A stretch of 64,000 nt of DNA from Candidatus Parcubacteria bacterium. Its GTDB lineage: Bacteria > Patescibacteriota > Minisyncoccia > UBA6257 > 2-01-FULL-56-20. A program made the position numbers and the translations under genes. This document shows positions 1 to 51,474 of the stretch, one piece after another (the first letter of the stretch is position 1; each line of letters starts with the position of its first letter). The stretch spans positions 251 to 64,250 of the forward strand of contig DAIDJL010000005.1 in NCBI GenBank assembly GCA_027450205.1, given 5' to 3'. Under the pieces are notes generated by a model. That model was given only the letters and a program-made list of their open reading frames with translations, did no database searches and was not told the origin of the DNA.

Positions 1-2990
1 AAGGAGTATCCGGTATTCCCCCATTCATAGATAGGGTCGAGCATCTGCGTCGAAGCGATCTCCGACGGAAAAGGGATAAGGCTGCTCACAAGCACGCCGC
101 CCGTTCGCCCAGGCTGATCAAGCGCCTGCGCTGAGCGAATGATCACATAAGCATCGCCATTGGACCACGTCCAAGAAGGATACTGGCTGAAGCAGGTAAG
201 CGTATCCGACGCGTTTGCTCCGATTTCACAGCTGGTATCCTGCGTAATATCGATCACCGAATAGCCTGCGCCCGGCGGAGTCCACTGATTCGTCGCCCAA
301 GATTTCGTAGCGTCAATAAGCGTGCTCGTACCCGAAGATCCCGTCATAGTGCCGCTTGCATAAAGCGTGGTTCCATAGACCCGGTAGCTATCTCCTGCAT
401 TGAACGCGGTCGATGTGGTGTTTCCGCCGAGCGTTCCCGTCGATCCCGCCTGATTGCAATATGCAGAAACACACGGAGGCTCCATCCATGAAAGCGTGAG
501 CGTGGAGGTGGTATTTCCCGCTATCCCGGCAATGGCACCGGTCGATGCATCAAAAACCGAATAATAAATTGCTCCTGGGGCAAATTGGTTTGCAGCCCAT
601 GATTGACCGCTATCAGTCACCGTTCCCGTCCCCATATCGGCACTCGTGATCGTTGACGAAACGGGATTCGTCTGTCCATCGTTCATATCCCATGGAGCAG
701 TGCCATTAGCGATGCCCCACCCTGTCGGCCGATATGCTCGCCAATCGCCAATGCCAATAGCTGCGTCCCACCAAGACCCCGACGCAACGCTGAACGTATT
801 GTCAAAAATGATTCCCACGCCGCCATTCACACTTTGGAACGAAGCGCATCCGTTAGAATTGCCGCACAAAACGGTATTGCCATAACTCTCGATCTGCCGG
901 ATGTCCCTCGGCCTCCCTCCGGTCGATGTGCCGTGCGTTCCGCACATGCCCGGTGACGTCATTCCATTTATCGTATTGAAGCGGCACGTATATCGCGCGC
1001 CGCCCAACCCTCCCCCATTGGCAGGTCCCGCTTCGGTATCGACCAATTCTGCGCTATTCGAAACAACATTACTTTCAATATACAGCTGTTCTGCGGTGCC
1101 AAGCGTATCCGAAGCATTCCATGAACTATCGCCGTATGAACCAATTCCGTTCCACGCGGAATAATTGACGTCCACCAATTCAATGACGCTCGAGCTCGTA
1201 TCGTTGACGGTGTTATGGTCAATCACCCCCCATACGTTATCAGTCACGATCATTGCGCTCGAATGAGCGACAAGCCCCCCAAAACTTTTGTCAAAATTTA
1301 TATCATCGACCCTCGCACTGGGACAGCCGTTCACTATACAACTTCCATCTATGCTGATAGGCGGCGCAAGCGATCCCGTGCCGAGGCCGGTCGCCGCTTC
1401 CATGACCATGGAAGAAATCCTCGTTCCCGCACTGCCATAACTCGGCGCAAAAATGAACATATCGCCGGTATTGGTATTGCCGGTAATGTCGTCTACTAGA
1501 ATAGTTGAGCTTTCTCCCGCGCCAATCACCTGAATACCGATGCCGCTGGGTATCGTAATACCGCTCGTCCACGTACAAGTACCTGCGGGGATATTGATAA
1601 CATCGCCATTTGCCGCCGTATGAAGAGGACCATTAATGACCGCATTCACATCACTTTCATTGCATGAGGCCGCATTGAAGGTATTGAGGTTTGCGAGCGT
1701 TGCAACGCTCGCCGCGGTAGAAGTCGCAGAGACAGTGCCTACCCCGTTATAAGCCTGGACGGAATACGTGTAAGTAGTGGAAGCCGCCAAGCCGGTATCA
1801 ATATAAGAAGCTCCCGATGAGGTGGCAACTTCAGTAACAGGAGTGCATACCCCCGCACATCGAAAAATGTTATACCCCGCTATACCCGACCCTCCGCTAT
1901 CGGTACTTGAGGTCCATGCGAGGGATATTTGCGATCCGGAAATGGCGATGGCCGTGAGGCCGGCGGGGGTGGTTGGCGTCGAGGTATCAACGATGATGGA
2001 CGCTGTTGCGGTCGAGGTACCGTTTATGTTCGCAGCGGTCAGCGTATATACGGTGGTGGAGGTGGGATTCACCGTGGTCGATCCGGTAAGGGTTGACGTT
2101 GAGAGGCTAAATCCGGTAGCGGTGATCGCAACGGAAGAAGCGTTGGAGACACTCCAAGAAAGCGTTGACGTTGCACCGGGAAAAGTGGATGAAACTGGAG
2201 CAGTAAAAGAAACAATATTCGGAGGAGATGTCGCTGACTCAAAGGCGACGATATGAGCGATAGCAGTATAATCGCCCGGCAGGTTAGAAAATATGTTGGA
2301 ATACGTCCCCTTGGTGCTCACAATATCATCGGCGGTTTCCAAATAAATATTGCCATTCGATTGCTGGGCAACGCGCAGGGTCCACCCGGCCGATACCGTA
2401 GGCAGCGTTGTGGTAGCAGTGGACGGTGCATGTGCGATGAACGAATAGAGGAGATCGTTCGCATTTGTAGTTGTTACATTATTAGTGGAAAACGAGACTA
2501 TCGGATAATTCTCCGAACTGTTTTGATTTAATTTGTCGATGGGATTCCCCGCTAAAATACCAGAGTATTCACTGACCGCCATATTCACAATGTTCGGCGC
2601 GCTTGTCCAGTAAAAATTGACCGTATCGGGACCTCCTTTGATGTTCGTTGCATAATAGGTGAACGCGTCAGTGTATTGCGATCCGCTGAGAATAGTAGAA
2701 GTTGTTAGCGTAAAAATATCGCCTTGCGTATCAGAAATCGTGCCCGTTGCAATAGTGCTGGAAAGAATATTTGCCACCGAAACGACGATCAAATCCCCTG
2801 CGGTAGTGCTGGAACCAAAAGTTACCGTCGACGTACCTGTTGAGCAACAAAAACCGGAAACCGTACTCGTTCCTTGAACAAATGAAATCGCCGCGTTGGC
2901 TTTGGCTGCTCCTAATATGCTAAAAAAGAAAAAGAAACCGACGATGGCGGCCAAGGATATGGATCGATTTCTGTGAAGGTGGTAATGCAT
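1..2990 (-). CDS. giant secreted cell-surface protein, 3' end truncated by window start. It has an N-terminal signal/TM, an Ig-like repeat, an FN3 domain and a right-handed beta-helix (pectate-lyase-like) region.
   Basis: Not in the ORF track, hand-translated on the minus strand. ATG is complement(2988..2990), within the palindrome ATGCAT. The N-terminus reads MHYHLHRNRSISLAAIVGFFFFFSILGAAKANA. The frame is open through position 1. An FN3-like block reads TPTTPAGLTAIAISGSQISLAWTSSTDSGGSGIAGYNIFRCAG...TTYTYSVQAYN. The repeat ...STLSWSVSNASSVAITATGFSLSTSTLTGSTTVNPTSTTVYTLTA is near-identical in architecture to the protein at 47589..51395. Confidence 0.6.
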   Translation of the reverse strand, partial: MHYHLHRNRSISLAAIVGFFFFFSILGAAKANAAISFVQGTSTVSGFCCSTGTSTVTFGSSTTAGDLIVVSVANILSSTIATGTISDTQGDIFTLTTSTILSGSQYTDAFTYYATNIKGGPDTVNFYWTSAPNIVNMAVSEYSGILAGNPIDKLNQNSSENYPIVSFSTNNVTTTNANDLLYSFIAHAPSTATTTLPTVSAGWTLRVAQQSNGNIYLETADDIVSTKGTYSNIFSNLPGDYTAIAHIVAFESATSPPNIVSFTAPVSSTFPGATSTLSWSVSNASSVAITATGFSLSTSTLTGSTTVNPTSTTVYTLTAANINGTSTATASIIVDTSTPTTPAGLTAIAISGSQISLAWTSSTDSGGSGIAGYNIFRCAGVCTPVTEVATSSGASYIDTGLAASTTYTYSVQAYNGVGTVSATSTAASVATLANLNTFNAASCNESDVNAVINGPLHTAANGDVINIPAGTCTWTSGITIPSGIGIQVIGAGESSTILVDDITGNTNTGDMFIFAPSYGSAGTRISSMVMEAATGLGTGSLAPPISIDGSCIVNGCPSARVDDINFDKSFGGLVAHSSAMIVTDNVWGVIDHNTVNDTSSSVIELVDVNYSAWNGIGSYGDSSWNASDTLGTAEQLYIESNVVSNSAELVDTEAGPANGGGLGGARYTCRFNTINGMTSPGMCGTHGTSTGGRPRDIRQIESYGNTVLCGNSNGCASFQSVNGGVGIIFDNTFSVASGSWWDAAIGIGDWRAYRPTGWGIANGTAPWDMNDGQTNPVSSTITSADMGTGTVTDSGQSWAANQFAPGAIYYSVFDASTGAIAGIAGNTTSTLTLSWMEPPCVSAYCNQAGSTGTLGGNTTSTAFNAGDSYRVYGTTLYASGTMTGSSGTSTLIDATKSWATNQWTPPGAGYSVIDITQDTSCEIGANASDTLTCFSQYPSWTWSNGDAYVIIRSAQALDQPGRTGGVLVSSLIPFPSEIASTQMLDPIYEWGNTGYS

Positions 2991-3078
2991 ATATTCACTC
3001 AGCCAACACATGGCTGGAAAATGGGTTTTATATCCACTATATGTTTATATATTATAGTATAACTTATCCGTATAAAAA

Positions 3079-4359
3079 CTATCGCTCCGCATTATAGAGT
3101 GCCAGCACCTCTGCAGGAGAGAGCACGCGGCCGTAAACGCGGACGTCGTCAAGTGCACCACCAAACAATGTACCGGTGGTTAAATCACGTCCAATCGTCA
3201 TATCGCTGCTGTTAAGGATGGATCCCTGAAGGTTGTTACTCCAGATAGTGATTGGCAACTGATTAATGCCGTCAATATATATCGAAATTCCAGCAGCGGA
3301 AGAAGAACCATCATAGGTTACAACCACTTCGTGCCATCCCCCAGGTATGAGGGAATTATATGGACTTTCTACCTGAATGCCTTGTGTGTAACCACCTATC
3401 GGATCGGTCAAGATAACTATGACACGGTTTTGGCCGGTATTGGCGAATAATGCAAATCCCTGCATCGAACCCGTTGTAGATCTCTTTGAAAAAAACGGCA
3501 GATAGTTAATGTCACCCGGCAAAACATCTATCCACGCCACGATCGAGAACGACTGATTGCTGTCGAAATTGAGATCCGGGGCATTGCCGACGTCGACATA
3601 TTGTGAGGTCGTCCCATCAAAGGAAAGCCCGTCCTTGATCTTGCCCGAGGCCCACGTTGGATAGGGGGCGATGAGCGTTCCGGTATTCCCGTTGCCGGTC
3701 GTATCCATGGCGGTCGTGCCGGTCCCCTCGTTGAGATTCCAGTAACCGTTCAGGCCGGCGGGGTTATAGAGGGGCGACAGAGACAAGCTCGTTCCCATGG
3801 CGACGACGCCCGGGTAGTCGTTGACCATAGGGCTGTCTTGAATGGCAGTGCGCTGCTTTGTTGATTCAGGGAGGGTAGTTAATTCATACTGCGTACCGTT
3901 CGTCGTATAGGTATAGTAATAGCCGGTGGAGGTCTGATTCGCCGGGTCCACGGGGAGAGTGTTGAACGGCGATCCCAGGGATAGATTATTGAAATCGACG
4001 GGGATCCATCCGGTGCCGTCGGTCTTTAAATAAGTGGAGGACGCCGCGCAGTGGTAGGTCCATCCCGCGGGCAGAGAGAAAAGTCCCAGCCCCTGGCATT
4101 GGTCCCCCGCCGTGGAGGTCGCCTCCGGATCGGGGATGGAAACATACACCGTGCTTGTAGCCCCCATCGACCCGCCCACCGTCGACTGATATCGCTCAAC
4201 CGCGATGTTCAATGCGGTCATGTCGGACAGGCGGTTGGAATCCCGTGCCTGTGCAAATAATTGAAACGGGTTGATCACGAGGAAGACCACCAGCGCAAGT
4301 ATCGCAAGTATCGCGATGACGATCAGCAATTCAATAAGGGTGAAAGCCCGTTTGGCCAT
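3079..4359 (-). CDS. type IV pilin-like protein with a large C-terminal LamG/concanavalin-A-like lectin domain
   Basis: The prepilin N-terminus is MAKRAFTLIELLIVIAILAILALVVFLV. The C-terminal ~200 aa match the LamG_3 pattern (GYWNLNEGTGTTAMDTTGNGNTGTL...FSIVAWIDV...WHEVVVTYDGSS...ISIYIDG...IGRD...FGGALDDVRVYGRVLSPAEVLALY). The first ~150 aa are paralogous to 51475..52980. Confidence 0.75.
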   Translation of the reverse strand: MAKRAFTLIELLIVIAILAILALVVFLVINPFQLFAQARDSNRLSDMTALNIAVERYQSTVGGSMGATSTVYVSIPDPEATSTAGDQCQGLGLFSLPAGWTYHCAASSTYLKTDGTGWIPVDFNNLSLGSPFNTLPVDPANQTSTGYYYTYTTNGTQYELTTLPESTKQRTAIQDSPMVNDYPGVVAMGTSLSLSPLYNPAGLNGYWNLNEGTGTTAMDTTGNGNTGTLIAPYPTWASGKIKDGLSFDGTTSQYVDVGNAPDLNFDSNQSFSIVAWIDVLPGDINYLPFFSKRSTTGSMQGFALFANTGQNRVIVILTDPIGGYTQGIQVESPYNSLIPGGWHEVVVTYDGSSSAAGISIYIDGINQLPITIWSNNLQGSILNSSDMTIGRDLTTGTLFGGALDDVRVYGRVLSPAEVLALYNAER

Positions 4360-4404
4360 GAGCGGATTATGGATTAAGTATACTATAGCGTCAGGGGATG
4401 GAAA

Positions 4405-5312: not shown

Positions 5313-5323
5313 GATAGATAATC

Positions 5324-7027: not shown

Positions 7028-7125
7028 GTTAGCCTAATATTTCCGCTTCACCGCGCTCTTTGAGTCGACGATTGATACTCTCCATGTAGAGCCATATAAG
7101 AAATGTGTGCATAAATTCAATACAA

Positions 7126-26868: not shown

Positions 26869-27510
26869 TCAGCACTGCGCCGGGCTTGCTCCCGGCACGC
26901 AATCTATCGTGCGCGCGCTCACGGTGGTCTGGAGATTGATGACATCGCTTGCGACCGCCGGATCGGTGGAGCTGGGCGCTATACCGATGGAGATGGTGAC
27001 GCGCGGCGTCCAATGATCGCCTTCCACCTGTCCATAGAGCTGGAATTGCAGGTACCTCACCGATACTTCGTTGCCGGTGACGGCCTGGGCCGGGTTTGCG
27101 TTGACGGATTCCATAAGCGCGCCGGTGGTGGAAGTGGAATACAAAATATGGTTGCTTTCGGCGTCATAGAAATCAAGCGCATTGCAGGTCCATGAGCCCG
27201 ACGGGGCGGGAGGGTACGAAAGCGTACAGCCGCAATCCGGAACGGATCCCGCGGGCGTGGTGCCGAGCGCGCCGCTGCCGGTCTGCGTGTTCCCTATCGT
27301 ATTGCAGAAAAGATATCCCGTGCGGATCTGGCGCGCCATCTGCTCGAGCACGAGGCTTACGTTGCTCTGCGCCGAGATAAGCGATGAAACCTGCCGCTGG
27401 GTGCGGACCGCGTTCGTGAATCCGCCCACCGCGATCGTGATGATGATGATGAAAAGCCCCACGGTCACCATCAGCTCGACAAGCGTGAATCCTTTTTTCA
27501 TGTTATTCAT
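26869..27510 (-). CDS. type IV pseudopilin / minor pilin
   Basis: The prepilin N-terminus is MNNMKKGFTLVELMVTVGLFIIIITIAVGGF. Confidence 0.65.
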   Translation of the reverse strand: MNNMKKGFTLVELMVTVGLFIIIITIAVGGFTNAVRTQRQVSSLISAQSNVSLVLEQMARQIRTGYLFCNTIGNTQTGSGALGTTPAGSVPDCGCTLSYPPAPSGSWTCNALDFYDAESNHILYSTSTTGALMESVNANPAQAVTGNEVSVRYLQFQLYGQVEGDHWTPRVTISIGIAPSSTDPAVASDVINLQTTVSARTIDCVPGASPAQC

Positions 27511-28061
27511 GGCTGCCAGTTATAGAAATGGTCTTCAAGAGTGATGCTGTTGGAGATCCCGCCGTCGGTCCATGCGACGGTCGATTGCACGTCAAGTTCG
27601 TTGCCGTTGTTCGCGACGTAGATCGTGCGGGTAAAATTCGTTGCCACGGCCCCGGAGGGGTCAAAGCTGAAGAGGTGCGTGGTCGGATTGAAATACAGCG
27701 TGCTGCGGGCGGCGCTCGGCGGAGAAGACTGGTACTTCAGGCTTGAAGGGCTGCACGTGACCGTCTGGTAATCTATCGGATAATAATATCCCTGCCCGTG
27801 CGGAAAACAGCTCCCCCAGCTGTAGCGCGGATTTCCGGACAGGTATTCGTACACGTCGTGATCGATCAAATTTTTCGCAAGCTCGATCCCTTCCGCGGCA
27901 AGGTACGTGCCCTGCGTGTCGTACATGGTCGTACGGTTCAACTGGAACGATTTCGTAAGGAGCGTGGCGATACCGATGAATCCCGTCGTAAGAATGCTGA
28001 GTGCGACGAGCGCTTCAACGAGCGTCTGGCCGCGGCGGGAGGAATGGGCGAAAGGGCTCAT
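27507..28061 (-). CDS. PilV-like minor pilin
   Basis: RGQTLVEALVALSILTTGFIGIATL matches the PilV-type N-terminus. There is a 4-bp overlap with the downstream gene. Confidence 0.6.
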   Translation of the reverse strand: MSPFAHSSRRGQTLVEALVALSILTTGFIGIATLLTKSFQLNRTTMYDTQGTYLAAEGIELAKNLIDHDVYEYLSGNPRYSWGSCFPHGQGYYYPIDYQTVTCSPSSLKYQSSPPSAARSTLYFNPTTHLFSFDPSGAVATNFTRTIYVANNGNELDVQSTVAWTDGGISNSITLEDHFYNWQP

Positions 28062-28089
28062 GGTTACATTCTATCGCATATGGGGCATT

Positions 28090-28710
28090 CTATAAACTGA
28101 CCTGCCCCGCGGAATTGACGCCGATCGTGCGCACGGCGCTCCCGTCGGCAGTGCTCAGATAGATATATGCGGTCGGCGCGGCGGGAGTGGTGAACGACCC
28201 GAGAAAAGTGTTGTTGCTGATGTTTACGAGAGTATACGGGTCGGGAGGATAGAACAGTATGTCCTGGATGGTATCACTCGCAGCGCCGCCGTCGTGCAAT
28301 ACGACGCCCTGCGCGACGTGGACATTCCAGCTTCCATTGGCGTAAATTTTCATAGAACCCGCGCTGACCGCGCCGGCGGCGGTCGTGCTTGCAAGCGACG
28401 GGCAAATCTCCCTGCCGCCGCCGGATACCGGCTGCGCGGTATTATATTCAAAGAGCGAATAGGTGGAACTTGCATAATTAAAATGCACGCCGTATGCGCA
28501 CGTCTTGACGTTCGCGGCATAGGTCGCGACGGAAAGATCTTTCGCCTCAAGGATAAGCTCCGCGATCTTTGATTCCTCTATGGAGAGCGATATCTGGTCC
28601 TGCCCCGCGTGGGTATACACGATCGCAAGGCCCGAAAGCAGCGCCGTGATCGCGAGAACCACGAGTATCTCTATCATGGTAAAACCGTTCTTGTTCATCC
28701 GTATATCCAT
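28090..28710 (-). CDS. type IV pseudopilin (GspH/FimT-like)
   Basis: The prepilin N-terminus is MNKNGFTMIEILVVLAITALLSGLAI. Confidence 0.65.
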   Translation of the reverse strand: MDIRMNKNGFTMIEILVVLAITALLSGLAIVYTHAGQDQISLSIEESKIAELILEAKDLSVATYAANVKTCAYGVHFNYASSTYSLFEYNTAQPVSGGGREICPSLASTTAAGAVSAGSMKIYANGSWNVHVAQGVVLHDGGAASDTIQDILFYPPDPYTLVNISNNTFLGSFTTPAAPTAYIYLSTADGSAVRTIGVNSAGQVSL

Positions 28711-28731
28711 TCTATCACTTTGGCGGCATCT

Positions 28732-29589
28732 TCACCGGATCCCGAGCAGCGAGAAGTACCAGCTGAAGATCGGCGCTCCCCAGAAAAACAACGTCGCCGC
28801 ACCAAGCGCGAGGAACGGCCCGAATGGCAGCGTGCCCTTCATGCTGTTCTTCCCACGCACGATGGCGAGCACGCCGACCGCGGCGCCGGCGACGAACGCG
28901 AACACCAGCACGAAAACAATGTCCGGCCAGCCGAAGACGAGCCCGAGCGGGATGGCAAGCTTGAGGTCTCCCATACCCATCCCCCTGCCGCGCGTGGCGG
29001 CAATGAGCAGGGCGAAGAACGCGCCGGCGCCGACCGCGCCGACGGCCCTCGCGAGGATCGCGCTCCCCTGCGCGCCGAAGATCGCGGCATACGGGCCGAG
29101 GAACGACTGGTTCGCCGGGCCGAAATATCCGACAGAAACGATCGCAAGAAAAACGCCGATCACGCCGAGAAAGATGTTGATCTCGTCCGGGATGATGCCA
29201 AGCCGGATATCTATCGCCGCCATGACGAGCAGCGCCTCGAACACGGCGACCCACAACGCGGCGATAGCGATGAGCGGCGCGGCACCGGTTCCCAGCACAA
29301 GCGGCACGAACGCGAAGACCGACCCCGAGAGCAATTCAACGATGGGATACTGGATGTTCAGCCGCGCTTTGCAGCGCCGGCAGCGGCCGCCCTGCAATAA
29401 AAAGCTGAAAAGCGGCACCAATTCGAACCATCGCAGCGTTTGCCTGCAATGCATGCAATGCGACCGGCCGCCGATCATCTTCGCATCCAATAAAAAATGC
29501 TCACCGTCATAGCGCAGTATGACGACGTTCAAAAAACTTCCGATCGCGATGCCGAAAATGAAAAGTGTGACCAATGTCAGCGGATCCAT
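28732..29589 (-). CDS. pilD: prepilin peptidase (A24 family)
   Basis: It has N-terminal Cys pairs (HCMHCRQ...CRRCK) and is polytopic. The catalytic Asp region is GMGMGDLKLAIPLG. Confidence 0.85.
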   Translation of the reverse strand: MDPLTLVTLFIFGIAIGSFLNVVILRYDGEHFLLDAKMIGGRSHCMHCRQTLRWFELVPLFSFLLQGGRCRRCKARLNIQYPIVELLSGSVFAFVPLVLGTGAAPLIAIAALWVAVFEALLVMAAIDIRLGIIPDEINIFLGVIGVFLAIVSVGYFGPANQSFLGPYAAIFGAQGSAILARAVGAVGAGAFFALLIAATRGRGMGMGDLKLAIPLGLVFGWPDIVFVLVFAFVAGAAVGVLAIVRGKNSMKGTLPFGPFLALGAATLFFWGAPIFSWYFSLLGIR

Positions 29590-29710
29590 CCATAGTATGA
29601 TAGCAGAAAACGCCGGCCGTTACTTTAAAAATATATTGATCGTCCCGCCGGGCGCATCAAAAAACCCGCCGAAGCGGGATTTTGAGGAATGTTCCAAAAA
29701 CAGGGAATGC

Positions 29711-30187
29711 CTACAGCGAAACGCAGAACTGCTGTGCGGTCTGGGTGCAGGTAAGCGTCGCGCCATCCGTTATGCCCGCTGCCGTAAAGTTCGTCGGAGG
29801 GGCATAATTGGTCCATTCTGAACCGTTCGCGCTTTCCATGTTTGCTCCAAGCTCATAGGTGGTAGCCCCCGTATTCCAGGCATAAATATAGTTCTTTCCG
29901 CTGCTCGGATCGTTCGGAACGGAATTCACCCCGATACCCGCGCCGGTAAGCGTCGTCTGGAACGTGGCCCACGTGGCAGGATTTGGAATTGGATATGCTC
30001 CATTTTTGTTATAGTAGAGCTCCAAGCCGTTCTGCACCTCGTGCAAGTCGGAAAGCCGCCGCGCGTCCCTGCCTGCCTGCTGGGTCGGGCCGAGACCAAC
30101 CAATACGACCGACGCCAAAATGGCGATGATCGCAACGACGATCAAGATTTCAATCAGGGTAAAGCCCTTTCTTTCGTTTTTAATCAT
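29711..30187 (-). CDS. pilA: type IV pilin (major pilin candidate)
   Basis: MIKNERKGFTLIEILIVVAIIAILASVVLV. The size is 158 aa and it has a C-terminal Cys pair (CTQTAQQFC). Confidence 0.7.
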   Translation of the reverse strand: MIKNERKGFTLIEILIVVAIIAILASVVLVGLGPTQQAGRDARRLSDLHEVQNGLELYYNKNGAYPIPNPATWATFQTTLTGAGIGVNSVPNDPSSGKNYIYAWNTGATTYELGANMESANGSEWTNYAPPTNFTAAGITDGATLTCTQTAQQFCVSL

Positions 30188-30247
30188 GTTCTTTTAGAGG
30201 GAAATCTTCTCGACCTTTTGATAATATCAACTTAATCATTATAGCAT

Positions 30248-31459
30248 TTAGTGGATGCTGTCCGTGAGGTTGTATATGGGGATAAGAATTGAGGCGAAAA
30301 GAAGGCCCACCATAAGGCCGATGCCGATCATAAGCACCGGCTGGATGAGATCCACCAGATTATTGGTGATCTCGTTCGCTTCGCGGGTATAAATGCCGGA
30401 AAGGCGCATGAACATCTCCTCTATTTTTCCCGTCGTCTCCCCCACCGCCACCATCTGGGAAACAAGGGGCGGGAAGAACTGCGGATATTTTGCGATGCTC
30501 TGGGAAAGGAGCGATCCCTGGCGCACGTCTTCCGCAATATCGTGCACGACGTCACGGTACAGCGAATTCCCCACCATGTGCCCGATGATCTCCAGCGCCT
30601 GCGCGATGGGAATGCCGCCGTGCACCAGGAGCGCCGCCGAGTTGCCGAACCGCGCCATGATCACCGGCGAATATACTTTCTTTACGATCGGCAAGCGGAT
30701 CTTCGCCTCGTCCAGCAATGCCTGGCCTTCGTCCGTCTGGGAATAATTGATGCCCAACACGCCGAGTATGATGACGGCGACGATGACGGCGATCCACCAC
30801 GCATGCAGGAAATTCCCGGTATTCAGGAGCACCTGCGTGTACCACGGAAGCGCGACACCGTTTTGCGCAAACACGCTGCCGAGCGACGGATACACGAATG
30901 TGACAAGGATGAACGCGACGATGATGAACAGCCCGATGACGATGCCCGGATAGACGAGCGCGGATGCCGCCTTGCTTGCAAGATCGCCTTCCTTTTCCGT
31001 GTAGTCGGCAAGGAACGCCGCGACCTCGTTCAGGTTGCCGGTGACCTCCGCCGCGCGGATCATTTCAATATAGTAATCGGGGAACACCTTGCCCTGCCGT
31101 GCCATCGCCTGCGAGAAAGAAATGCCCGCGTCGATGTCTTCCGTCACCTGCGAGACGGCGCCTTTAAGGGTCTGGCTTGCGGTCTGTTCAAAAAGGATCT
31201 TGAGCGCGTTATTGAGCGGCAGCCGCGCCTCAAGCAACGTCGCCAGCTGGCGCGTGAAGACGATGAGGTCCTTGCGGCTTACGCGGTTGAAAAATCCCGC
31301 GATATTATCGAATGCGGTCGGCGGACGTACGGCGACGACGCTCAGCACGAAAAGGTCATGGCTCGAGAGGATCGCGCTCGCCGCATCGCGGTCCGATGCC
31401 TCCACAAATCCGACCTGCGCCGCCCCTTCTTTTGTTTTGGCCTGATACTTGAACTTCAT
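30248..31459 (-). CDS. pilC: type IV pilus inner-membrane platform protein (GspF/PilC family)
   Basis: There are two T2SSF repeats and three TM segments, with a typical LLxxGxPLxxAL motif (403 aa). Confidence 0.85.
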   Translation of the reverse strand: MKFKYQAKTKEGAAQVGFVEASDRDAASAILSSHDLFVLSVVAVRPPTAFDNIAGFFNRVSRKDLIVFTRQLATLLEARLPLNNALKILFEQTASQTLKGAVSQVTEDIDAGISFSQAMARQGKVFPDYYIEMIRAAEVTGNLNEVAAFLADYTEKEGDLASKAASALVYPGIVIGLFIIVAFILVTFVYPSLGSVFAQNGVALPWYTQVLLNTGNFLHAWWIAVIVAVIILGVLGINYSQTDEGQALLDEAKIRLPIVKKVYSPVIMARFGNSAALLVHGGIPIAQALEIIGHMVGNSLYRDVVHDIAEDVRQGSLLSQSIAKYPQFFPPLVSQMVAVGETTGKIEEMFMRLSGIYTREANEITNNLVDLIQPVLMIGIGLMVGLLFASILIPIYNLTDSIH

Positions 31460-31472
31460 AGGAATTTCACCT

Positions 31473-32546
31473 TTAGGTTCTTTCCAGCAAGATCCTCAGC
31501 TCGGCCGGGTTCAGCGAATACAGCTCCGCATTGTCCAACGTCACCTCTTTGTTCTTTATAAGATTCACCAGCGAGCGGTTGAGCGTGACCATTCCCTCCT
31601 GCAGGCTCGTTTCAATGACGAGATCGATCTGGTAGGTCTTCCGTTCGCGGATAAGGTTGCGGATGGCGGGATTGACGATCATGATCTCCATCGCCGGAAT
31701 GCGGCCGCCGGAGATGCGCGGGAGCAACCGGATGGAAACGATCGCCACGAGCGTGGCGGCGAGCTGGGACGTCACCTGCCCCTGCTGCTCGGCCGGGAAC
31801 GAATCGATGATGCGGTCGATCGTCTGCGCCGCGGAGTTGGTGTGCAGCGTGGATACCACGAGGTGGCCCGTCTCGGACGCGGTCATGGCCGTGCCGATGG
31901 ATACCGCGTCGCGCATCTCGCCGATCATCACGACGTCGGGGTCCTGGCGCAGCACCGTGCGGAGCGCGGCATGGAAGCTCGTCGTGTCGCTCCCCACCTC
32001 CCTTTGCGAGACGATGCATTTGTCCTGCGTGAAAAGATATTCCACCGGATCCTCGATGGTAATGATATGATCGGTGCGCGTGTGGTTGATCTCGTCTACG
32101 ATAGCCGCAAGCGTAGATGACTTGCCGTGCCCGGCGGGGCCCACCACAAGGACGAATCCCTGCGAGAGCTGGGCGAAATCATGGAGCAACGGCGGAAGAT
32201 TCAGCTCCTCTATGGTTTTGATGCGCGTGGGGATAAGGCGCAACGCCGCGGCGAGGTATCCGCGCTGGAAATATACGTTCACGCGGAAGCGCGCTTTTTC
32301 CTCGAAACTGTATGCAAAGTCGATCTGCCGCTGGGTGAGCAATTTTGCCTTCTGCTCCGGCGTGAGCATCTGCGATATGATCCCTTCCGCGGAATCCGGC
32401 GTCATAACCGGTTCTTTTTGGAGCGGCACAAGCACTCCGTCAATGCGCAACGTCGGGCGGCGCCCCACCGAAAGATGGAGGTCCGACGCATTTTGTTTCG
32501 CGGTCGTCGTCAGGAGATCATCCAACTGCTGTTTATATTCGTTCAT
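31473..32546 (-). CDS. pilT: twitching-motility retraction ATPase
   Basis: Walker A is VVGPAGHGKSSTLAA. It also has the Asp box, a Walker B (TIEDPVEY) and a His box, in a 357-aa PilT-size protein. Confidence 0.8.
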   Translation of the reverse strand: MNEYKQQLDDLLTTTAKQNASDLHLSVGRRPTLRIDGVLVPLQKEPVMTPDSAEGIISQMLTPEQKAKLLTQRQIDFAYSFEEKARFRVNVYFQRGYLAAALRLIPTRIKTIEELNLPPLLHDFAQLSQGFVLVVGPAGHGKSSTLAAIVDEINHTRTDHIITIEDPVEYLFTQDKCIVSQREVGSDTTSFHAALRTVLRQDPDVVMIGEMRDAVSIGTAMTASETGHLVVSTLHTNSAAQTIDRIIDSFPAEQQGQVTSQLAATLVAIVSIRLLPRISGGRIPAMEIMIVNPAIRNLIRERKTYQIDLVIETSLQEGMVTLNRSLVNLIKNKEVTLDNAELYSLNPAELRILLERT

Positions 32547-32653
32547 ATGTTCATATTACCACAACGAGGCAGCCAGGGAGAAGTATGGTACTGGAAAGGC
32601 ACGCCGTTCTTGGCGACATTTGCGTTTCCGGCATCGTGCTTCCCTCTCTTCGC

Positions 32654-34372
32654 CTACGAGTCGTCCGTCTCTCTGATGATCTCCTCCATGGAAACCCTTC
32701 CGCGGAGCGCTTTCACGGTGCCGTCCTGGCGGAGCGTGATCATCCCCTGCTTCCGCGCCTGCGCCGTGATCTTTTGCGTCGTGGCGCCTTCGTTGATGAT
32801 CGTCTCTATCTGCGGCGTCACGAGTAAAGCCTCGTAGATCCCCGTCCGGTCAACGATGCCGCGCCCCTTGCAGGTGGCACATCCTTTGGCATGGTAGATC
32901 TTATATGGCGCGGTGTATTGCGAAACGACCTCCGCGGGAAGTCCTTCGAGCGCCGCCTTGATGACCGCCTGCATTTCCGCCGGAGCTTCTTCCGGTTTCT
33001 TGCAGTCCGGGCACAGGACGCCCACGAGGCGCTGGGCGATGATCAGGTTGAGGGACACGGGCAGAAGGAACGGTTCCACCTTAAGGTCGATGAGGCGCGG
33101 GATGACGCCCGCCGCGTTGTTCGTGTGGAGCGTGGAAAGCACGACGTGTCCGGTAAGCGCGGCCTGTACCGCAAGTCCGGCGGTCTCGCCGTCGCGGATC
33201 TCGCCAACCATGATGATATCCGGGTCCTGGCGCAGGATCTGGCGGAGTCCCGATGCAAAGTCGTATCCGATCTCCGGCCGCACCTGCGACTGATTAATGC
33301 CGGCCACAAAATACTCCACCGGATCCTCGAGCGAGACGATGTTCACGTCCTCGGTGTTCAGCGATTGCAGGAATGCATAGAGCGTCGTGGTCTTACCGGA
33401 GCCGGTAGGGCCGGTGATGAGCACCATGCCGTACGGCTTTGCGAGACCCTTCTTGATCGTCGCGCGCGTGGGGTCAAGCAAGTCGAGGTTCTCGAAGCTC
33501 TTGAGGCCGGACGTGGGATCGAGCACGCGGATCACGATCTTTTCGCCGAGCGGCGTCGGGAACGTGGCGACGCGGAAATCGATATCGCGGTCGAAAAGCT
33601 TTGCGCGGAAGCGGCCGTCCTGCGGAATACGCGTCTCGTCGATCTTAAGATTGGATATCACTTTGACGCGCGAGGTGATCGGCTGGGCAAGTTCCTGCGG
33701 CAACGACGCCACTTCCTGCAGATCGCCCTGGATGCGGAAGCGGATACGCAGCGTCTTCTGCTGCGGTTCGATATGCACATCCGACGCTTTGTTCATCACC
33801 GCTTCTTTGAATGTGTCCGCGACGATCTTGATGATCGGCGCATCCGCGCTGTCTCCGCCTTCAAGCTCGATCACCTGCTGGCCGCCCGAACCCTCCTTGA
33901 CGTTCAACGACCGCACCGCCGCCGCGACCTCCGCGCGATACGGGGAATATTTTCGCAATGCCGCCTGAAGATCTTCGTATGAAATGAGATAGACGCCGAG
34001 ATTGAAATGGTTCTGCCGCGCGATGAACTTCAGCGCATCCTGCGCTTTCGTATCGTCGGGATGCAGCATGCCGACGATAAGCAGCCCATCCTGCATGCTG
34101 ATAGGAACAGCATGATACGTCCGCGCGGTCTCCTCGGGAACGATTCCCATAAGCTGTTCGGTGAGCGCCTCCGGATCTATTTTTTTATACGGCACCTTGA
34201 GCAGCTCGCTCTTCAGCGCCGCCACCTGCTCGTCGGGAACGATCCGCTCCCTCCCGATAATGTCTTCGGGCGACTCGCCGCTTACGATCGCGTCGCGCTT
34301 AAGACGCGTCGCGATCGCGTCGGTGATCATCCCGCGCGCCTGAAGTTGCTGCAGTAGTTCGTCGCTGGTCAT
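32654..34372 (-). CDS. pilB: type IV pilus assembly ATPase (GspE/PilB family)
   Basis: Walker A is GPTGSGKTTTLYAFL. The C-terminal tetracysteine is CPDCK...CATCKG. It has an N1 domain. Confidence 0.85.
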   Translation of the reverse strand: MTSDELLQQLQARGMITDAIATRLKRDAIVSGESPEDIIGRERIVPDEQVAALKSELLKVPYKKIDPEALTEQLMGIVPEETARTYHAVPISMQDGLLIVGMLHPDDTKAQDALKFIARQNHFNLGVYLISYEDLQAALRKYSPYRAEVAAAVRSLNVKEGSGGQQVIELEGGDSADAPIIKIVADTFKEAVMNKASDVHIEPQQKTLRIRFRIQGDLQEVASLPQELAQPITSRVKVISNLKIDETRIPQDGRFRAKLFDRDIDFRVATFPTPLGEKIVIRVLDPTSGLKSFENLDLLDPTRATIKKGLAKPYGMVLITGPTGSGKTTTLYAFLQSLNTEDVNIVSLEDPVEYFVAGINQSQVRPEIGYDFASGLRQILRQDPDIIMVGEIRDGETAGLAVQAALTGHVVLSTLHTNNAAGVIPRLIDLKVEPFLLPVSLNLIIAQRLVGVLCPDCKKPEEAPAEMQAVIKAALEGLPAEVVSQYTAPYKIYHAKGCATCKGRGIVDRTGIYEALLVTPQIETIINEGATTQKITAQARKQGMITLRQDGTVKALRGRVSMEEIIRETDDS

Positions 34373-34390
34373 ACTGTATTCTATATACTA

Positions 34391-34690
34391 TTACGGTGCG
34401 ATGAACGGGTTCGGCCGCCCCACTGCCGCAGGGCCCTGCGGCGTCGGCAGCGTGACTGTGGATTTCAGCACCGCGAATGCCGGACTTTGTATCACCGTCT
34501 CCGGATGCAATGACAGCTGCGTGATGGGAGCGATGGTGCTCAGGCTGCCGGTTGAAGGGATGGCCACCAGCTCCGGCTGGGCAAAAAATACATAGTAGAT
34601 GGCGGCGCCGGCGATGCCCAAAAACACCAGCCATCCGATGACGCCCAGGAGATTCGTCTTTTTTTCCCCTTCTTCAACGATGATTGCCAT
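34391..34690 (-). CDS. small single-pass membrane protein (pilus-operon associated)
   Basis: A 99-aa protein with a TM helix (LLGVIGWLVFLGIAGAAIYYVFF), located between pilB and pilO-like genes. Confidence 0.35.
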   Translation of the reverse strand: MAIIVEEGEKKTNLLGVIGWLVFLGIAGAAIYYVFFAQPELVAIPSTGSLSTIAPITQLSLHPETVIQSPAFAVLKSTVTLPTPQGPAAVGRPNPFIAP

Positions 34691-34701
34691 AGTATTTTTT
34701 A

Positions 34702-35334
34702 TTACGGTGCCTGATAGTACGTTACGACCGTTACGGTAAAGGTGAACATGTCCTGGTTTGCCGCCTGCCCTTTCACGGTAACGGTCGCGGCGGGCTGGAG
34801 CGATGCAGCGGTGACATCCAGAATCCTGATGTTCGTCTCAAGCCCCTGGAGGAAAAGCTTGAACGCCTCGTAGCTTCCCGATCCGGTGACTTGGAATGAG
34901 ACCGTGCCGGTGGGCTTGATGACCGACCCCGCCGCCGCCGCACTCCCTATCTGGCTGCCGCTGGCAGGCGCCGGCGGCATGGCCGTCTGCAGCGCCTGGA
35001 TCGCGATCGACGTTCCCTGTATCGCAACGCCCGCATTCGCCGCAATGCCGTATATCTGCGCCAATGCCCCCGATACGTCCGGACCCACCGGCAAAGCCAA
35101 TGTCACCGCCTGGCTTGACGATGCATCGCTTTGGTACGCGGCAAGCAAGCTCTTCCCCTTACTCACGATCTGATTCTCGTTATTGTAGAGCGTCGCTTCG
35201 CTTTCTTGCTGCCCCTTGATGGTCTCAAGGTTCGCGTAGGCCGGCACGATAAATTCAAAGTAGACCACCAACGCCGCGGCAATGATAAGTGCCGCGATGA
35301 TAAGACTGGATAAGCGTTTGGTTTCTTGTTTCAT
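34702..35334 (-). CDS. PilO-like pilus assembly protein
   Basis: An N-terminal TM is followed by a coiled region and an Ala/Gly-rich periplasmic domain. Its position after the pilN-like gene supports the call. Confidence 0.4.
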   Translation of the reverse strand: MKQETKRLSSLIIAALIIAAALVVYFEFIVPAYANLETIKGQQESEATLYNNENQIVSKGKSLLAAYQSDASSSQAVTLALPVGPDVSGALAQIYGIAANAGVAIQGTSIAIQALQTAMPPAPASGSQIGSAAAAGSVIKPTGTVSFQVTGSGSYEAFKLFLQGLETNIRILDVTAASLQPAATVTVKGQAANQDMFTFTVTVVTYYQAP

Positions 35335-35338
35335 AGTA

Positions 35339-35902
35339 TTATTTGCCGGACACCCCGAATACCGAGGGGTTCATGATCAGCGTCGCGCTGAAATCCCATC
35401 CGCTGCCGGAAAGCTGCGGAGCCGTCACGTTGGATACCGTCACCGCTGAGACCTGGGGGGAATTTTCAAATATGGCAACCTGCTGGTTCACATCAGCTTC
35501 GGACTTTGCCACGCCGGAAAGCGTGATGCGGCCACCGGCCGCAAGCGTGAATGATTGATAATAGACGTTCGCCTCGGTGTTCTGTTCAAGCCATGAGAAA
35601 AACTGGGAAGTGAGCACATGGTTCTTCAACAGTGCCTGAAGGTTCGATATCTGCGAATAAAAATCTATCAGCTGGGATTGTTCGCCCGTGGAAATGGAAT
35701 TGTCCAGCGCACTCACCTTGTTTTGCGCATCGGTAAGCTGCGATTGCAGATATGGCGCATAGCCGAACGAGAGCCCGGCATAGATCACGATGGAAAGAAA
35801 AAGGATGCCGCCGGAAAAAAGCAGGGCGCCGACGGCCCACCCTTCCGTCCCGGACGACGGATCCCTGCCCAATTGTTCTATTACTTTTTCTGGAAGTGGC
35901 AT
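35339..35902 (-). CDS. PilN-like pilus assembly protein
   Basis: Single TM (GALLFSGGILFLSIVIYAGL) followed by a periplasmic domain, immediately downstream of pilM. Confidence 0.45.
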   Translation of the reverse strand: MPLPEKVIEQLGRDPSSGTEGWAVGALLFSGGILFLSIVIYAGLSFGYAPYLQSQLTDAQNKVSALDNSISTGEQSQLIDFYSQISNLQALLKNHVLTSQFFSWLEQNTEANVYYQSFTLAAGGRITLSGVAKSEADVNQQVAIFENSPQVSAVTVSNVTAPQLSGSGWDFSATLIMNPSVFGVSGK

Positions 35903-35931
35903 TGGCTGGTTGCTGATTATTGGAAACCTGG

Positions 35932-37014
35932 CTACCTGGCGAATTGCTTCATGCCGAGACCGAGCGCCACCGTCATCGGAGCTCCAAGTTCCGGAATGAA
36001 CGGACCGATCTCGTCGGGAACCTCGAACCGTGAAAAGGGCGTCGCCTTTACCACCGGAATGCCGAAATCCCTCTCAAAATATTTTTCGATACCGGACAAG
36101 TTGGCGCCGCCGCCGGCGAGGACGACGCGTTCCGTCTTTGCCGCCGTAGGAAATTGCTGGCGATAAGTATACTCCGCCTTCTTTACCTCATTAACTATAG
36201 CATCCAAAAACGGCATCATTATTGTGGATAACTCGTAGTTTGGCCCGGTGCCCAGGATCCCCCGCTGCTTCTTGAGCTCTTCGGCGCGCATGGGATTGAT
36301 CCCAAGACTCGTCGCGAGCGCCTGAGTGAGCGATGCCGCGGCAATATCGCTCTGCGCACTCCACACGAGCACGCCTTTTTCCATGAAAATGATGTTCGTG
36401 GACCTGGAGCCGATATCCACGATGGTCGTCGCGGTCGGATCGCCGGCGAAAATGCGCGCAATGGAGAGCGATTCTATCTCGAGCGCGCGCAGGCGCAATC
36501 CCGCTGCCTGGAACATATGCTGATATTTCTTTATCTGCTCCTGCGGAACGGAGATCAGCAAGATCTTCTGGTGTGCGAATCCTTTGTCATCCACGTAATC
36601 CGCGACCCTCATCCAATCGAGCGCAACCTCGCTGAGCGGCATGGGAACATATTGCTTGGCCTGGTACACGAGCGCCTTGGCAATCTCCTTTTCCTCCATG
36701 GCGGGAAAATCCACAAGCGTCATGAACACGTCGAATGGAGGCAGTGACGCGATGGCGTCCTTCGTCGTCGTGCCAAGTTCACGGATGAGCGCCTTCAACA
36801 GCGCCACCGCATCCTTTTCAAATATTTTAAGGCCGCTCGTTTGCAGCGCCTGATTGGCCCGCGTAAGATACCCGCTCGATTCAAGGAAGCCGTAATTGGT
36901 GACGCGCGGCGCCTTTTTGCCGGCTTTCACCTCCACCATCTTGATGGAGGTCGTACCGATATCAACGCCGAGATACGCATCGGTCGGGAAAAATGAAGAA
37001 AATGGGTTGTTCAT
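35932..37014 (-). CDS. pilM: type IV pilus assembly ATPase-fold protein
   Basis: The actin-like fold N-terminus is YLGVDIGTTSIKMVEVK. The size of 360 aa fits PilM. Confidence 0.75.
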   Translation of the reverse strand: MNNPFSSFFPTDAYLGVDIGTTSIKMVEVKAGKKAPRVTNYGFLESSGYLTRANQALQTSGLKIFEKDAVALLKALIRELGTTTKDAIASLPPFDVFMTLVDFPAMEEKEIAKALVYQAKQYVPMPLSEVALDWMRVADYVDDKGFAHQKILLISVPQEQIKKYQHMFQAAGLRLRALEIESLSIARIFAGDPTATTIVDIGSRSTNIIFMEKGVLVWSAQSDIAAASLTQALATSLGINPMRAEELKKQRGILGTGPNYELSTIMMPFLDAIVNEVKKAEYTYRQQFPTAAKTERVVLAGGGANLSGIEKYFERDFGIPVVKATPFSRFEVPDEIGPFIPELGAPMTVALGLGMKQFAR

Positions 37015-45747: not shown

Positions 45748-46113
45748 ATGGAGTCCCAACCTGCGGCAAGCTACCTCCGGATGTACCGCAAAAAGTCCGG
45801 GCTCAGCCAGCGTGAATTGGCAGAGGTGCTCGGACTGATCACGGAATGGCGCATATCTGAGCATGAACGGTCGATCACGGTCCCGCGCCTCCTTACCGCG
45901 ATCAGTTACGAGGTCGTCTTCAATGCTCCGCTTGCTAAGTTGTTCCCCGGAATCTATGAGACCGTCCGAGGAAACATCGAGTCCCGATTGGCAGAACTTG
46001 AGTCCCGGCTGCAGGAGAGCGATGCCAAAGGGCGCGCCGCAATACCGATCGCTCGGAAGCTGGAATGGATTTGCGAACGAAAGAATCTTGCAGCCGACGA
46101 AGTCCCCGCGTAA
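45748..46113 (+). CDS. XRE-family helix-turn-helix transcriptional regulator
   Basis: The HTH is LRMYRKKSGLSQRELAEVLGLITEWRISEHER. Confidence 0.6.
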   Translation: MESQPAASYLRMYRKKSGLSQRELAEVLGLITEWRISEHERSITVPRLLTAISYEVVFNAPLAKLFPGIYETVRGNIESRLAELESRLQESDAKGRAAIPIARKLEWICERKNLAADEVPA

Positions 46114-46142
46114 CGCTCGGGATCAATAGCCGCATTTTGGCG

Positions 46143-51395: not shown

Positions 51396-51474
51396 TGAGG
51401 TGTGGAATAAATAATAGATATAATGGCGGAGGGTTCGAGTTACTCTGTTTTAATTATACTAAATAATATGAAAC

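Follow-up and report, generated by a model that had tools for sequence, protein, structure and literature searches.

The closest described counterparts of the pilins studied here are modular type IV pilins such as those of Streptococcus sanguinis, PilB (a pilin module with a vWA module) and PilC (a pilin module with Ig-like and ConA-like lectin modules) (PMC8179133, PMC9934059). The commonest additional module of modular pilins is PF13385, including in examples from the CPR (PMC8179133), and the lectin module of S. sanguinis PilC binds glycans and has been placed at the pilus tip by modelling (PMC9934059). In tip adhesins of the PilY1 type, a large non-pilin protein is as a rule encoded right after a pilin gene (PMC8179133). 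Here, we analysed a stretch of 64,000 nucleotides (the window) from a Candidatus Parcubacteria bacterium, a small, probably symbiotic bacterium of the CPR/Patescibacteria type, which encodes two pairs composed of a modular pilin (pil1, pil2) and a giant secreted protein (big1, big2). The components of these pairs are of known kinds, and their pairing is recurrent in some relatives of the locus but is not obligatory.

Two paralogous gene pairs

All four genes are present on the minus strand, in the duplicated two-gene arrangement reported in a preliminary description of this DNA:

3079..4359, minus: pil1, modular type IV pilin, 426 aa (ORF, Pfam, TIGR02532)
about 4270-4359, minus: pil1 alpha1 helix (leader MAKRA/FTLIE)
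about 3850-4269, minus: pil1 globular pilin module, followed by a linker
about 3082-3747, minus: pil1 Laminin_G_3 (ConA-like lectin) module
2991..3078, minus: pil1-big1 spacer, 88 nt, 29% G+C, TATAAT box
1..2990, minus: big1, giant secreted protein, 996 codons visible (stop-free translation; 3' end beyond the window edge)
2892-2990, minus: big1 Sec signal peptide (...AKANA/AISF)
about 2220-2900, minus: big1 N-domain beta-sandwich (model pLDDT 90.9)
1695-2222, minus: big1 Ig-like and FN3 modules (fn3 E 4.9e-9, HMM positions)
1-1694, minus: big1 distal region, roughly 565 aa
51475..52980, minus: pil2, modular type IV pilin, 501 aa
about 52852-52980, minus: pil2 alpha1 helix (leader ...NSERA/FTLIE)
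about 52426-52851, minus: pil2 globular pilin module
about 51478-52368, minus: pil2 FGE-sulfatase/C-type-lectin-fold module, ending in GFRCAR
51396..51474, minus: pil2-big2 spacer, 79 nt, 31% G+C, TATAAT box
47589..51395, minus: big2, giant secreted protein, 1268 aa
51309-51395, minus: big2 signal peptide
50691-51314, minus: big2 N-domain
50166-50696, minus: big2 Ig and FN3 modules
49590-50159, minus: big2 PL20/LamG-like beta-sandwich
49302-49562, minus: big2 Ig-like domain
48375-49277, minus: big2 (beta/alpha)8 barrel (D822/E823 and E928)
48120-48362, minus: big2 beta-sandwich
47802-48113, minus: big2 Ser/Gly-rich linker
47604-47801, minus: big2 PG_binding_1 (Pfam)

The two pairs are paralogous, with 57% identity between the pilins in the N-terminal 180 aa (E 2e-51) and 36% between the giants in the N-terminal 432 aa (E 4e-47). 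These matches do not come down to Ser/Thr low complexity, since they are composition-adjusted and cover structured domains. In both comparisons similarity is confined to the N-terminal parts; the distal parts share none, in line with the divergence of distal domains proposed earlier. Identity between the copies reaches 71% in the pilin helix, 54% in the globular pilin domain, 26% over 108 aa in the N-domain of the giants and 52% in their Ig and FN3 modules, which had been called near-identical, an overstatement. The nucleotide sequences align over only 130 bp, at 71% identity. The duplication of the pair is old: the copies diverged anciently and have separate orthologs elsewhere.

The pilin-giant spacers are AT-rich and close to 80 bp, as had been noticed, and no terminator-like hairpin was found on the coding strand of either. 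The gene big1 is indeed absent from the ORF list, because ORFs running off the window go unlisted; there is nothing specially invisible about it, the frame being merely open to the window edge.

Modular pilins with different predicted binding modules

Both pilins carry a class III signal peptide (N_methyl, Pfam E 5.5e-7 for pil1 and 4e-8 for pil2; TIGR02532), which supports their assignment as type IV pilins. As in S. sanguinis PilB and PilC, this peptide and a small pilin module are followed by a linker and a binding module, the size is similar (about 50 kDa) and the organism is of the monoderm type with PilB/PilC/PilD/PilT machinery. The size of 426-501 aa is large for a pilin, as stressed previously, but ordinary for a modular one. 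In contrast to the S. sanguinis proteins, pil1 and pil2, known here from sequence, have Ala instead of Gly just before the cleavage site (-1), are encoded 25 kb from the pilus cluster and not inside it, and are followed by the gene of a giant secreted protein; pil2 further differs by its FGE-sulfatase/C-type-lectin fold.

The LamG tail attributed to pil1 is recovered by Pfam (Laminin_G_3, E 4.9e-19). The fold proposed for the pil2 tail is corroborated by its family, 47 of 48 members of which match PF03781, although pil2 alone stays under the Pfam threshold; it has 1318 full-length relatives. This fold class is common to the pil2 family and the variable proteins of diversity-generating retroelements (DGRs; Bordetella phage Mtd type and CPR DGR targets), and in the pil2 family the variable segment is the very C-terminal one, with GFRCxR as its end. 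One pil2 relative (P0005 in L004) is a bona fide DGR target whose GFRCAR end holds the variable region; Avd, the template repeat and the reverse transcriptase follow directly downstream of its gene, and every template/variable mismatch falls at a template adenine. In contrast, neither reverse transcriptase, Avd nor template repeat was found beside pil2 or elsewhere within the window, and no retroelement is nearby in four of the five other pil2-family contexts examined. At most, pil2 is a remote or former retroelement target.

Giant proteins, one with a glycosidase-like barrel

In both giants, a Sec signal peptide is followed by a shared set of modules: the N-domain, which is a conserved beta-sandwich without known function, then Ig and FN3. 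The distal region of big1 belongs to a large uncharacterised family (5340 cluster representatives); its earlier assignment as a beta-helix is unproven. In the big2 barrel, D822/E823 and E928 do not vary among 31 homologs; they follow strands three apart, the same strands at which retaining glycoside hydrolases of clan GH-A (GH42, GH164, GH140, GH5, GH35) have their acid/base and nucleophile. However, the barrel has no family match in Pfam or NCBIfam, its sequence identity to clan GH-A enzymes is only 9-13%, its motif is DEP instead of NEP and it is embedded in a 1268-aa protein together with the N-domain, Ig, FN3 and PG_binding_1 modules. A homolog (P0123) sits within a glycosyltransferase-rich exopolysaccharide cluster, a setting comparable to that of the PslG-like enzymes of exopolysaccharide loci.

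Pilus machinery and genomic neighbourhood

A complete type IV pilus cluster, prepilin peptidase included, is located between the two pairs, and other genes lie close to pair 2:

26869..37014, minus: type IV pilus machinery cluster (Pfam)
35932-37014, minus: PilM
35339-35902, minus: PilN
32654-34372, minus: PilB
31473-32546, minus: PilT
30248-31459, minus: PilC
29711-30187, minus: short major-type pilin
28732-29589, minus: prepilin peptidase
26869-28710, minus: three minor pilins
45748..46622, plus: HTH (Xre-type, HTH_3) gene and 185-aa partner gene
53064..54359, minus: winged-helix (Trans_reg_C) and TPR regulator, directly upstream of pil2

PilM/N and PilT belong to this cluster, in which no secretin was seen. 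Its minor pilins precede 634-aa and 1004-aa Ig-domain ORFs, and a repeat family (D1) is common to the three pilin N-termini. Pair 2 is surrounded by defence genes, HTH genes and a tRNA. Homologs of the HTH and 185-aa gene pair flank pilin cassettes within a recombinase/TrwB-bearing element in L087 and L171 (tblastn, 51% identity, E 7e-35, and 36% identity, E 1e-15).

Recurrence of the pairing

The exact pairing was found in two other CPR contigs. In L006, a pilin-LamG gene precedes a big2 ortholog (76% identity), and a response regulator occupies the place of the Trans_reg_C and TPR gene; in L087/L088, a pilin-LamG gene precedes a big1-like gene (P0129). The pilin of the L006 cassette, orthologous to pair 2, thus has a LamG tail where the window has the C-type-lectin fold. 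This swap bears out the modular design suggested in the preliminary description, whose interpretation stands for the modular pilin and lectin parts and fails for the near-identity of modules. Analogous pairs occur at 6-7 of the 26 testable pilin-LamG metagenome loci, with giants of 900-1470 aa containing Beta_helix/Pect-lyase-like, LamG and Big_7/BACON_2 domains, and PG_binding_1 in four loci; the large neighbours upstream of the pilin at these loci are housekeeping genes.

Other contexts lack the association. The giant is missing from five of the six pil2-family (pilin-CLec) contexts examined, the pairing is absent in two of six CPR contexts of N-domain giants, and neither the closest big1 relative (P0124, in L008) nor P0131 has a pilin neighbour. 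Among 79 genome loci with the Ig-FN3 module, the giant is never immediately preceded by a pilin gene. The mobile element of L171 encodes two modular pilins and no giant where L087 has a pilin and a giant. Pilin genes and giant surface proteins are both numerous in CPR genomes, so that some adjacency is expected.

Possible roles of the pairs

The recurrent adjacency suggests that pilin and giant may work as one system. In the most likely reading, whose chances we consider about even, each pair would unite a lectin-type adhesin of the pilus with a glycan-active protein tethered at the cell surface, both carried by variable islands, in a bind-and-process role. A possible but less probable explanation is that the two genes are independent cargo of variable or mobile CPR islands, adjacent without functional coupling and each working alone. 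The unpaired pil2-family contexts, P0124 and P0131, the L171 element, the tail swap, the surroundings of pair 2 and the TATAAT box proper to each spacer would all fit such cargo. However, order and orientation are identical and spacers short in three unrelated contigs, with analogous giants in six more; the large genes that flank the pilin opposite the giant encode housekeeping and not surface proteins, and no terminator-like site separates pilin and giant. Alternatively, the giant could be a pilus-presented, non-pilin adhesin that functions like PilY1/PilC of diderm type IVa pili, with the modular pilin as docking adaptor and the PG-binding domain targeting the peptidoglycan of another cell. 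PilY1/PilC tip adhesins are likewise large surface proteins with a modular variable binding part encoded immediately after a pilin gene, the minor pilins of the core cluster also precede Ig-domain ORFs, and an N-domain of no known function could suit this role. Yet the searches found neither a PilY1 beta-propeller nor PilY1 similarity, the giants begin with ordinary Sec signal peptides and have a PG-binding tail, and a single modular pilin, not obligatorily paired, replaces the four-pilin set of the minor-pilin operon. In addition, many giants without an adjoining pilin (Acidobacteriota, Chloroflexota and others) carry the N-domain at either end, so that it is not a pilin-docking domain as such. 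We regard this explanation as unlikely.

Two further proposals appear highly improbable. If the pilins were pseudopilins of a type II-secretion-like or dedicated export or display route for the giant, and not adhesins, the weak GspG/GspH-type matches of the N-terminal helix and the pilin-to-exoprotein gene order would be accounted for; but these matches span only the generic prepilin helix, far under family cut-offs, the cluster combines PilM/N and PilT with no secretin seen, the giants have Sec signal peptides in a monoderm-type cell requiring no outer-membrane passage, and a piston has no use for a lectin tail. Equally doubtful is a catalytic role of the pil2 C-terminal domain as a formylglycine-generating (SUMF1/EgtB-type) enzyme instead of a binding module, despite the PF03781 matches of its family and the source name of one relative ('SUMF1/EgtB/PvdO family nonheme iron enzyme'). 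Outside the pilin helix, the top-ranking PDB profile hit of pil2 is an uncharacterised protein (5vf4, E 7e-5), with SUMF2 at only E 0.075, the DGR target in L004 uses this fold as a binding scaffold, and no FGE substrate is known at an extracellular, pilus-borne location.

In the bind-and-process scenario, the prepilin peptidase of the window's pilus cluster would cleave pil1 and pil2, and their N-terminal pilin modules would insert into pili built by PilBCMN(T), most likely at or near the tip because the tail is bulky. The C-terminal module, which is a ConA/LamG-type lectin in pil1 and has a C-type-lectin/FGE fold in pil2, would be presented as the ligand-binding head. The giant gene would probably be co-transcribed with the pilin gene or be transcribed from a -10 box of its own within the AT-rich spacer, and its product, predicted to be Sec-exported and to exceed 1000 aa, would combine the beta-sandwich N-domain, Ig/FN3 spacers and a variable working module. 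In big2, this module would comprise the PL20-like beta-sandwich and a clan GH-A-like retaining glycosidase barrel (predicted acid/base E823, predicted nucleophile E928), and the flexible Ser/Gly linker and peptidoglycan-binding domain would tether it to the cell wall; copy 1 is probably alike, by homology. The pilus lectin would thus capture a glycan-bearing surface, possibly of a host or episymbiont partner cell or of a matrix, and the tethered enzyme-like giant would then act on polysaccharide at the contact, with pairs located in variable or mobile regions and their modules probably exchanged by recombination.

Two paralogous pairs of pilin and giant protein genes

The same two-gene layout occurs twice in the window, each time as a type IV pilin gene (pil1, pil2) followed by a gene encoding a giant surface protein (big1, big2), and all four open reading frames are present as the preliminary description had reported:

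3079..4359, minus strand, pil1, ORF of 426 aa
2990 down to base 1, minus strand, big1, 996 codons without a stop, running off the window edge
51475..52980, minus strand, pil2, ORF of 501 aa
47589..51395, minus strand, big2, ORF of 1268 aa

The big1 gene, said to be invisible in the ORF track, is indeed absent from the ORF list, but the sole cause is that it runs off the window. The two pilins share 57% identity over 180 aa (BLASTP, E 2e-51), which agrees with the proposed paralogy of their N-termini, and the two giants 36% identity over 432 aa (BLASTP, E 4e-47), in both cases in the N-terminal portion only. Conservation differs from module to module.

Amino acid identity between copy 1 and copy 2
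Pilin helix: 71%
Pilin globular module: 54%
N-terminal beta-sandwich (N-domain) of the giants: 26% over 108 aa
Ig-like and FN3 modules, big1 versus big2: 52%
Distal parts: no similarity

The Ig-like and FN3 modules are thus not near-identical, as had been stated, and the divergence of the distal domains was borne out. The likeness of the pilins and of the giants is real; an origin in Ser/Thr low complexity was ruled out by composition-adjusted E-values and HMM domain matches. At the DNA level just 130 bp align between the two gene pairs, and a recent tandem-type duplication was ruled out, nucleotide similarity being almost nil. As judged from their sequences, the two pairs are old paralogs. 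The AT-rich spacers of about 80 bp measure 88 nt in the first pair and 79 nt in the second (29-31% G+C); both contain a TATAAT box, and on the coding strand no terminator-like hairpin is present in either of them.

Modular pilins with lectin-type tails

Type IV pilins were recognized by a short charged leader, (G/A)↓F cleavage, Glu at +5 and about 20 hydrophobic residues (N_methyl / TIGR02532). Such a class III signal peptide is present in pil1 (MAKRA↓FTLIELL) and pil2 (…NSERA↓FTLIELL), which match PF07963 (E 5.5e-7 and 4e-8) and TIGR02532 (30.2 and 27.4 bits; cut-off 16.3). The residue at position -1 is Ala in both (codons 4345-4347 and 52927-52929), as in most of their relatives seen (loci L001, L004 and L006), whereas the pilins of the window's pilus cluster and that of locus L087 have the canonical Gly.

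Both proteins conform to the definition of modular pilins (Raynaud et al. 2021) and belong to that published class, with which pil1 shares a LamG/PF13385-type tail; PF13385 is the commonest extra module of modular pilins, CPR (Patescibacteria-type) examples included (PMC8179133). The tail of pil1 is a Laminin_G_3 domain (ConA-like lectin; aa 251-418, E 4.9e-19), as the preliminary description had proposed. For the ConA-like module of Streptococcus sanguinis PilC, lectin activity is proven, and the module has been modelled at the tip of the pilus (PMC9934059).

The FGE-sulfatase/C-type-lectin fold (CLec) suggested for the tail of pil2 is recovered through its relatives. Its full-length relatives number more than 1300, at about 50% identity, and FGE-sulfatase (PF03781) is matched by 47 of 48 aligned family members, to which pil2 is 50-61% identical over its full length, but pil2 itself stays just below the PF03781 threshold and its tail has no Pfam match at E<=10. 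The pil2-family profile matches PDB 5vf4; as to a formylglycine-generating enzyme of the SUMF1 type, SUMF2 in the PDB is matched only at E 0.075. PDB profile matches of the pilin module are confined to the alpha1 region.

A relative of pil2 is a target of a diversity-generating retroelement

The protein P0005, 57% identical to pil2 (GCA_027318325.1, contig DAHVPJ010000005.1, L004:10001-13309), lies directly ahead of a diversity-generating retroelement (DGR), whose parts are Avd, the template repeat and a gene for reverse transcriptase (RT):

L004 11402-11517, variable region of P0005, at the 3′ end of the pilin gene
L004 11573-11932, Avd-like gene
L004 11982-12097, template repeat
L004 12698-13309, RVT_1 gene

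Every mismatch between the 3′ end of the P0005 gene and the template repeat falls at a template adenine. P0005 is accordingly a bona fide DGR target, which indicates that the pil2-family fold is used as a diversifiable binding scaffold. Within the 64-kb window, pil2 lacks the features of a DGR variable protein: its 3′ end (51475-51800) has no template repeat and the RT and Avd of L004 have no homologs there. Among the papers searched, we found none linking DGRs and prepilins.

Modules of the giant proteins

Both giants begin with a Sec-type signal peptide, an N-domain of about 215 aa, an Ig-like domain and FN3. The N-domain, modelled as a confident all-beta sandwich (pLDDT 90.9), turns up again, both N- and C-terminally, in numerous giants of several phyla, and the Ig-FN3 unit is similarly promiscuous. 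Searched as separate segments, both N-domains, the distal region of big1 and the barrel of big2 had no Pfam match at E<=10, and PDB sequence and profile searches with the giants, the N-domain profile and the big1 distal profile returned FN3/Ig matches only, or nothing. For big2, the public gene call P0121 (1221 aa) starts 47 codons after the first ATG and omits the signal peptide (51255-51395); the longer ORF is more plausible, having a hydrophobic N-terminus and a VKA↓T site.

Residues 413-1098 of big2 are the counterpart of a standalone protein family of about 700 aa for which there is no Pfam model. The AF2 model of this region (pLDDT 91.2) comprises a jelly-roll, an Ig-like domain, a (beta/alpha)8 barrel and a beta-sandwich, the predicted barrel being of the fold expected in clan GH-A. 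Two candidate catalytic residues, E823 (WMDEPD) and E928 (FIEAG), do not vary among 31 homologs and follow strands three apart in the DSSP string of the model. In clan GH-A, the catalytic Glu residues follow strand 4 (acid/base) and strand 7 (nucleophile); the big2 motif is DEP, not NEP. The region is glycosidase-like, as had been noted for big2, but big2 could not be placed in a named CAZy or Pfam glycosidase family: aa 600-1100 have no Pfam/NCBIfam match even at E<=10, and the sole match, to Polysacc_lyase (PF14099) at aa ~428-570, is sub-threshold (23.1 bits versus a cut-off of 29.9). The peptidoglycan-binding domain assigned to big2 is present at its C-terminus (PF01471, PG_binding_1; aa 1199-1264, E 1.3e-10). 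The C-terminus of big1 lies beyond the window; since its relatives P0129 and P0124 carry a PF01471 tail as in big2, big1 probably bears one too.

The distal region of big1 belongs to a large family (5340 cluster representatives) and has itself no Pfam match and no PDB sequence or profile match. The signal for the beta-helix proposed for it, of the pectate-lyase-like kind, is faint: only three of the 67 family members overlap PF12708, at E 6.4e-6 at best, and hhalign against a PF12708-bearing protein aligned only an N-terminal cap motif (probability 1%). Both giants differ from the tip adhesin PilY1/PilC in that neither has a Pfam/NCBIfam match to the C-terminal beta-propeller of PilY1.

Pilus machinery within the window

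Cognate machinery for the pilins (prepilin peptidase, assembly ATPase, platform, PilM and PilN) is encoded between the two pairs, in a complete type IV pilus cluster with PilM, PilN, PilB, PilT, PilC, a 158-aa pilin, a prepilin peptidase and three minor pilins:

28732-29589, Peptidase_A24 (prepilin peptidase)
30248-31459, T2SSF protein
31473-32546 and 32654-34372, T2SSE proteins

Directly after the three minor pilins come ORFs of 634, 231 and 1004 aa (21269-26730, minus strand) with Ig-like/BACON-like signals and no PilY1 domain, a third arrangement in the window of pilins followed by giants.

Genomic context and mobility

The second pair lies between a tRNA-Gly gene and a type I restriction-modification system, near a ThsB-like TIR gene, HTH genes and an HTH+M78 pair. 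Genes of defence type cluster around both pairs:

7126-7992, Mrr-family endonuclease
44278-44970, ThsB-like TIR protein
58729-59819, HTH and M78 peptidase pair
59958-63963, type I restriction-modification system (HsdS, HsdM and the C-terminal part of HsdR)

No att-like repeats of tRNA-Gly or tRNA-Asp were found as island borders. The G+C content changes from 45-49% (4000-17300) to 55-60% (18000-40000) exactly at tRNA-Asp (17364-17439); the low-GC block, in which Mrr, GNAT, APH, NUDIX, HIT and ATP-grasp genes lie, may represent either an island or a join in the assembly.

Two loci, L087:1-19951 and L171:1-15506, have in common a conserved element encoding a serine recombinase, a D12 methyltransferase, a DUF87/TrwB ATPase and an SMC-like ATPase, with an additional Replic_Relax gene in the L087 copy. 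At the same position the element carries variable cargo, a LamG-tailed pilin and a giant in L087, and a CLec-tailed pilin and a split LamG-tailed pilin in L171. Homologs of three accessory genes of this element flank the second pair in the window (45766-46086, 46179-46613 and 55406-55651), from which its recombinase and transfer genes are absent. This fits a view of the pairs as island cargo undergoing module exchange. LamG-type and CLec-type modular pilin genes, 48 kb apart in the window, are direct neighbours in other genomes, in tandem at L173:4797-8548 and L171:7001-9806.

Is the pairing of pilin and giant meaningful?

Relatives, whose names (Paceibacterota, Minisyncoccia and Taylorbacteria) place the window in CPR/Patescibacteria, provide evidence on both sides. 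At locus L006, an ortholog of big2 (76% identity) is directly preceded by a gene for a LamG-tailed pilin (7343-8716). This gene is a mosaic, its helix-coding part being 86% identical to pil2 in nucleotide sequence and the remainder 71% identical to pil1, with the break point in the linker after the PES.KQ motif, which is evidence of recombination between the paralogs or their tails. The big1-like P0129 (L087/L088) likewise has a LamG-tailed pilin gene just upstream. Among the 26 metagenome loci of pil1 relatives with sufficient downstream sequence, seven, including L087, are directly followed by an ORF of 900-1470 aa on the same strand; the other six giants have Beta_helix/Pect-lyase-like, LamG, Big_7 or BACON_2 domains, with PG_binding_1 in addition in four. 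Where large genes lie upstream at these loci, they have housekeeping roles (topoisomerase I, LepA, helicase), which also speaks for the pairing.

The main rival explanation is that pilin and giant adjoin through a shared island location, without functional coupling. In line with this, the giant is absent from five of the six pil2-family contexts examined, P0124 and P0131 have no adjoining pilin, and in none of the 79 genome loci with the Ig-FN3 unit is the giant immediately preceded by a pilin gene. The scan of genome contigs for the Ig-FN3 module returned mostly giants of Acidobacteriota, Chloroflexota and Verrucomicrobiota without pilins, so that this module is too promiscuous to define the gene pair. 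Weighing these observations, we give the joint action of pilin and giant roughly even chances, and hold the individual gene annotations with much higher confidence than any pilin-giant coupling.

Separately, in four metagenome loci (L105, L130, L147 and L168) a LamG-tailed pilin gene lies immediately downstream of topoisomerase I, which points to another conserved site, a chromosomal one, for pilins of this type.

Biological implications

The preliminary observation is confirmed and its interpretation partly supported. The best reading is that of a lectin adhesin displayed on pili, together with a glycan-active giant surface protein tethered to the wall, in two paralogous pairs of old origin. 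All components belong to known classes and are ordinary examples of them; modestly new are the pairing, which recurs yet is facultative, an unclassified GH-A-like family and an N-domain that is an orphan.

A more far-reaching idea, which we consider rather improbable, is that the pairs are exchangeable host-range cartridges of a family of integrative, conjugative-type CPR elements. The pilus-tip lectin, hypermutated by DGRs in some lineages, would select a glycan on the surface of the partner cell, and the co-inherited giant, a wall-tethered glycanase or a beta-sandwich protein, would open or remodel that surface. If so, swapping the tail (LamG or CLec) or the core (GH-A barrel or big1-type module) would retarget the episymbiont to new hosts.

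CPR bacteria depend on attachment to other cells and, to our knowledge, no attachment organelle other than the type IV pilus has been shown to matter in their cultivated representatives. The glycosidase-like family of about 700 aa, with its confident model and candidate catalytic residues, and the widespread beta-sandwich module of about 215 aa, which has no close solved relative, are leads in their own right. If lectin-tailed pilins and the neighbouring giants cooperate, they would offer concrete candidates for recognising hosts and breaching surfaces in lineages not yet cultivated.
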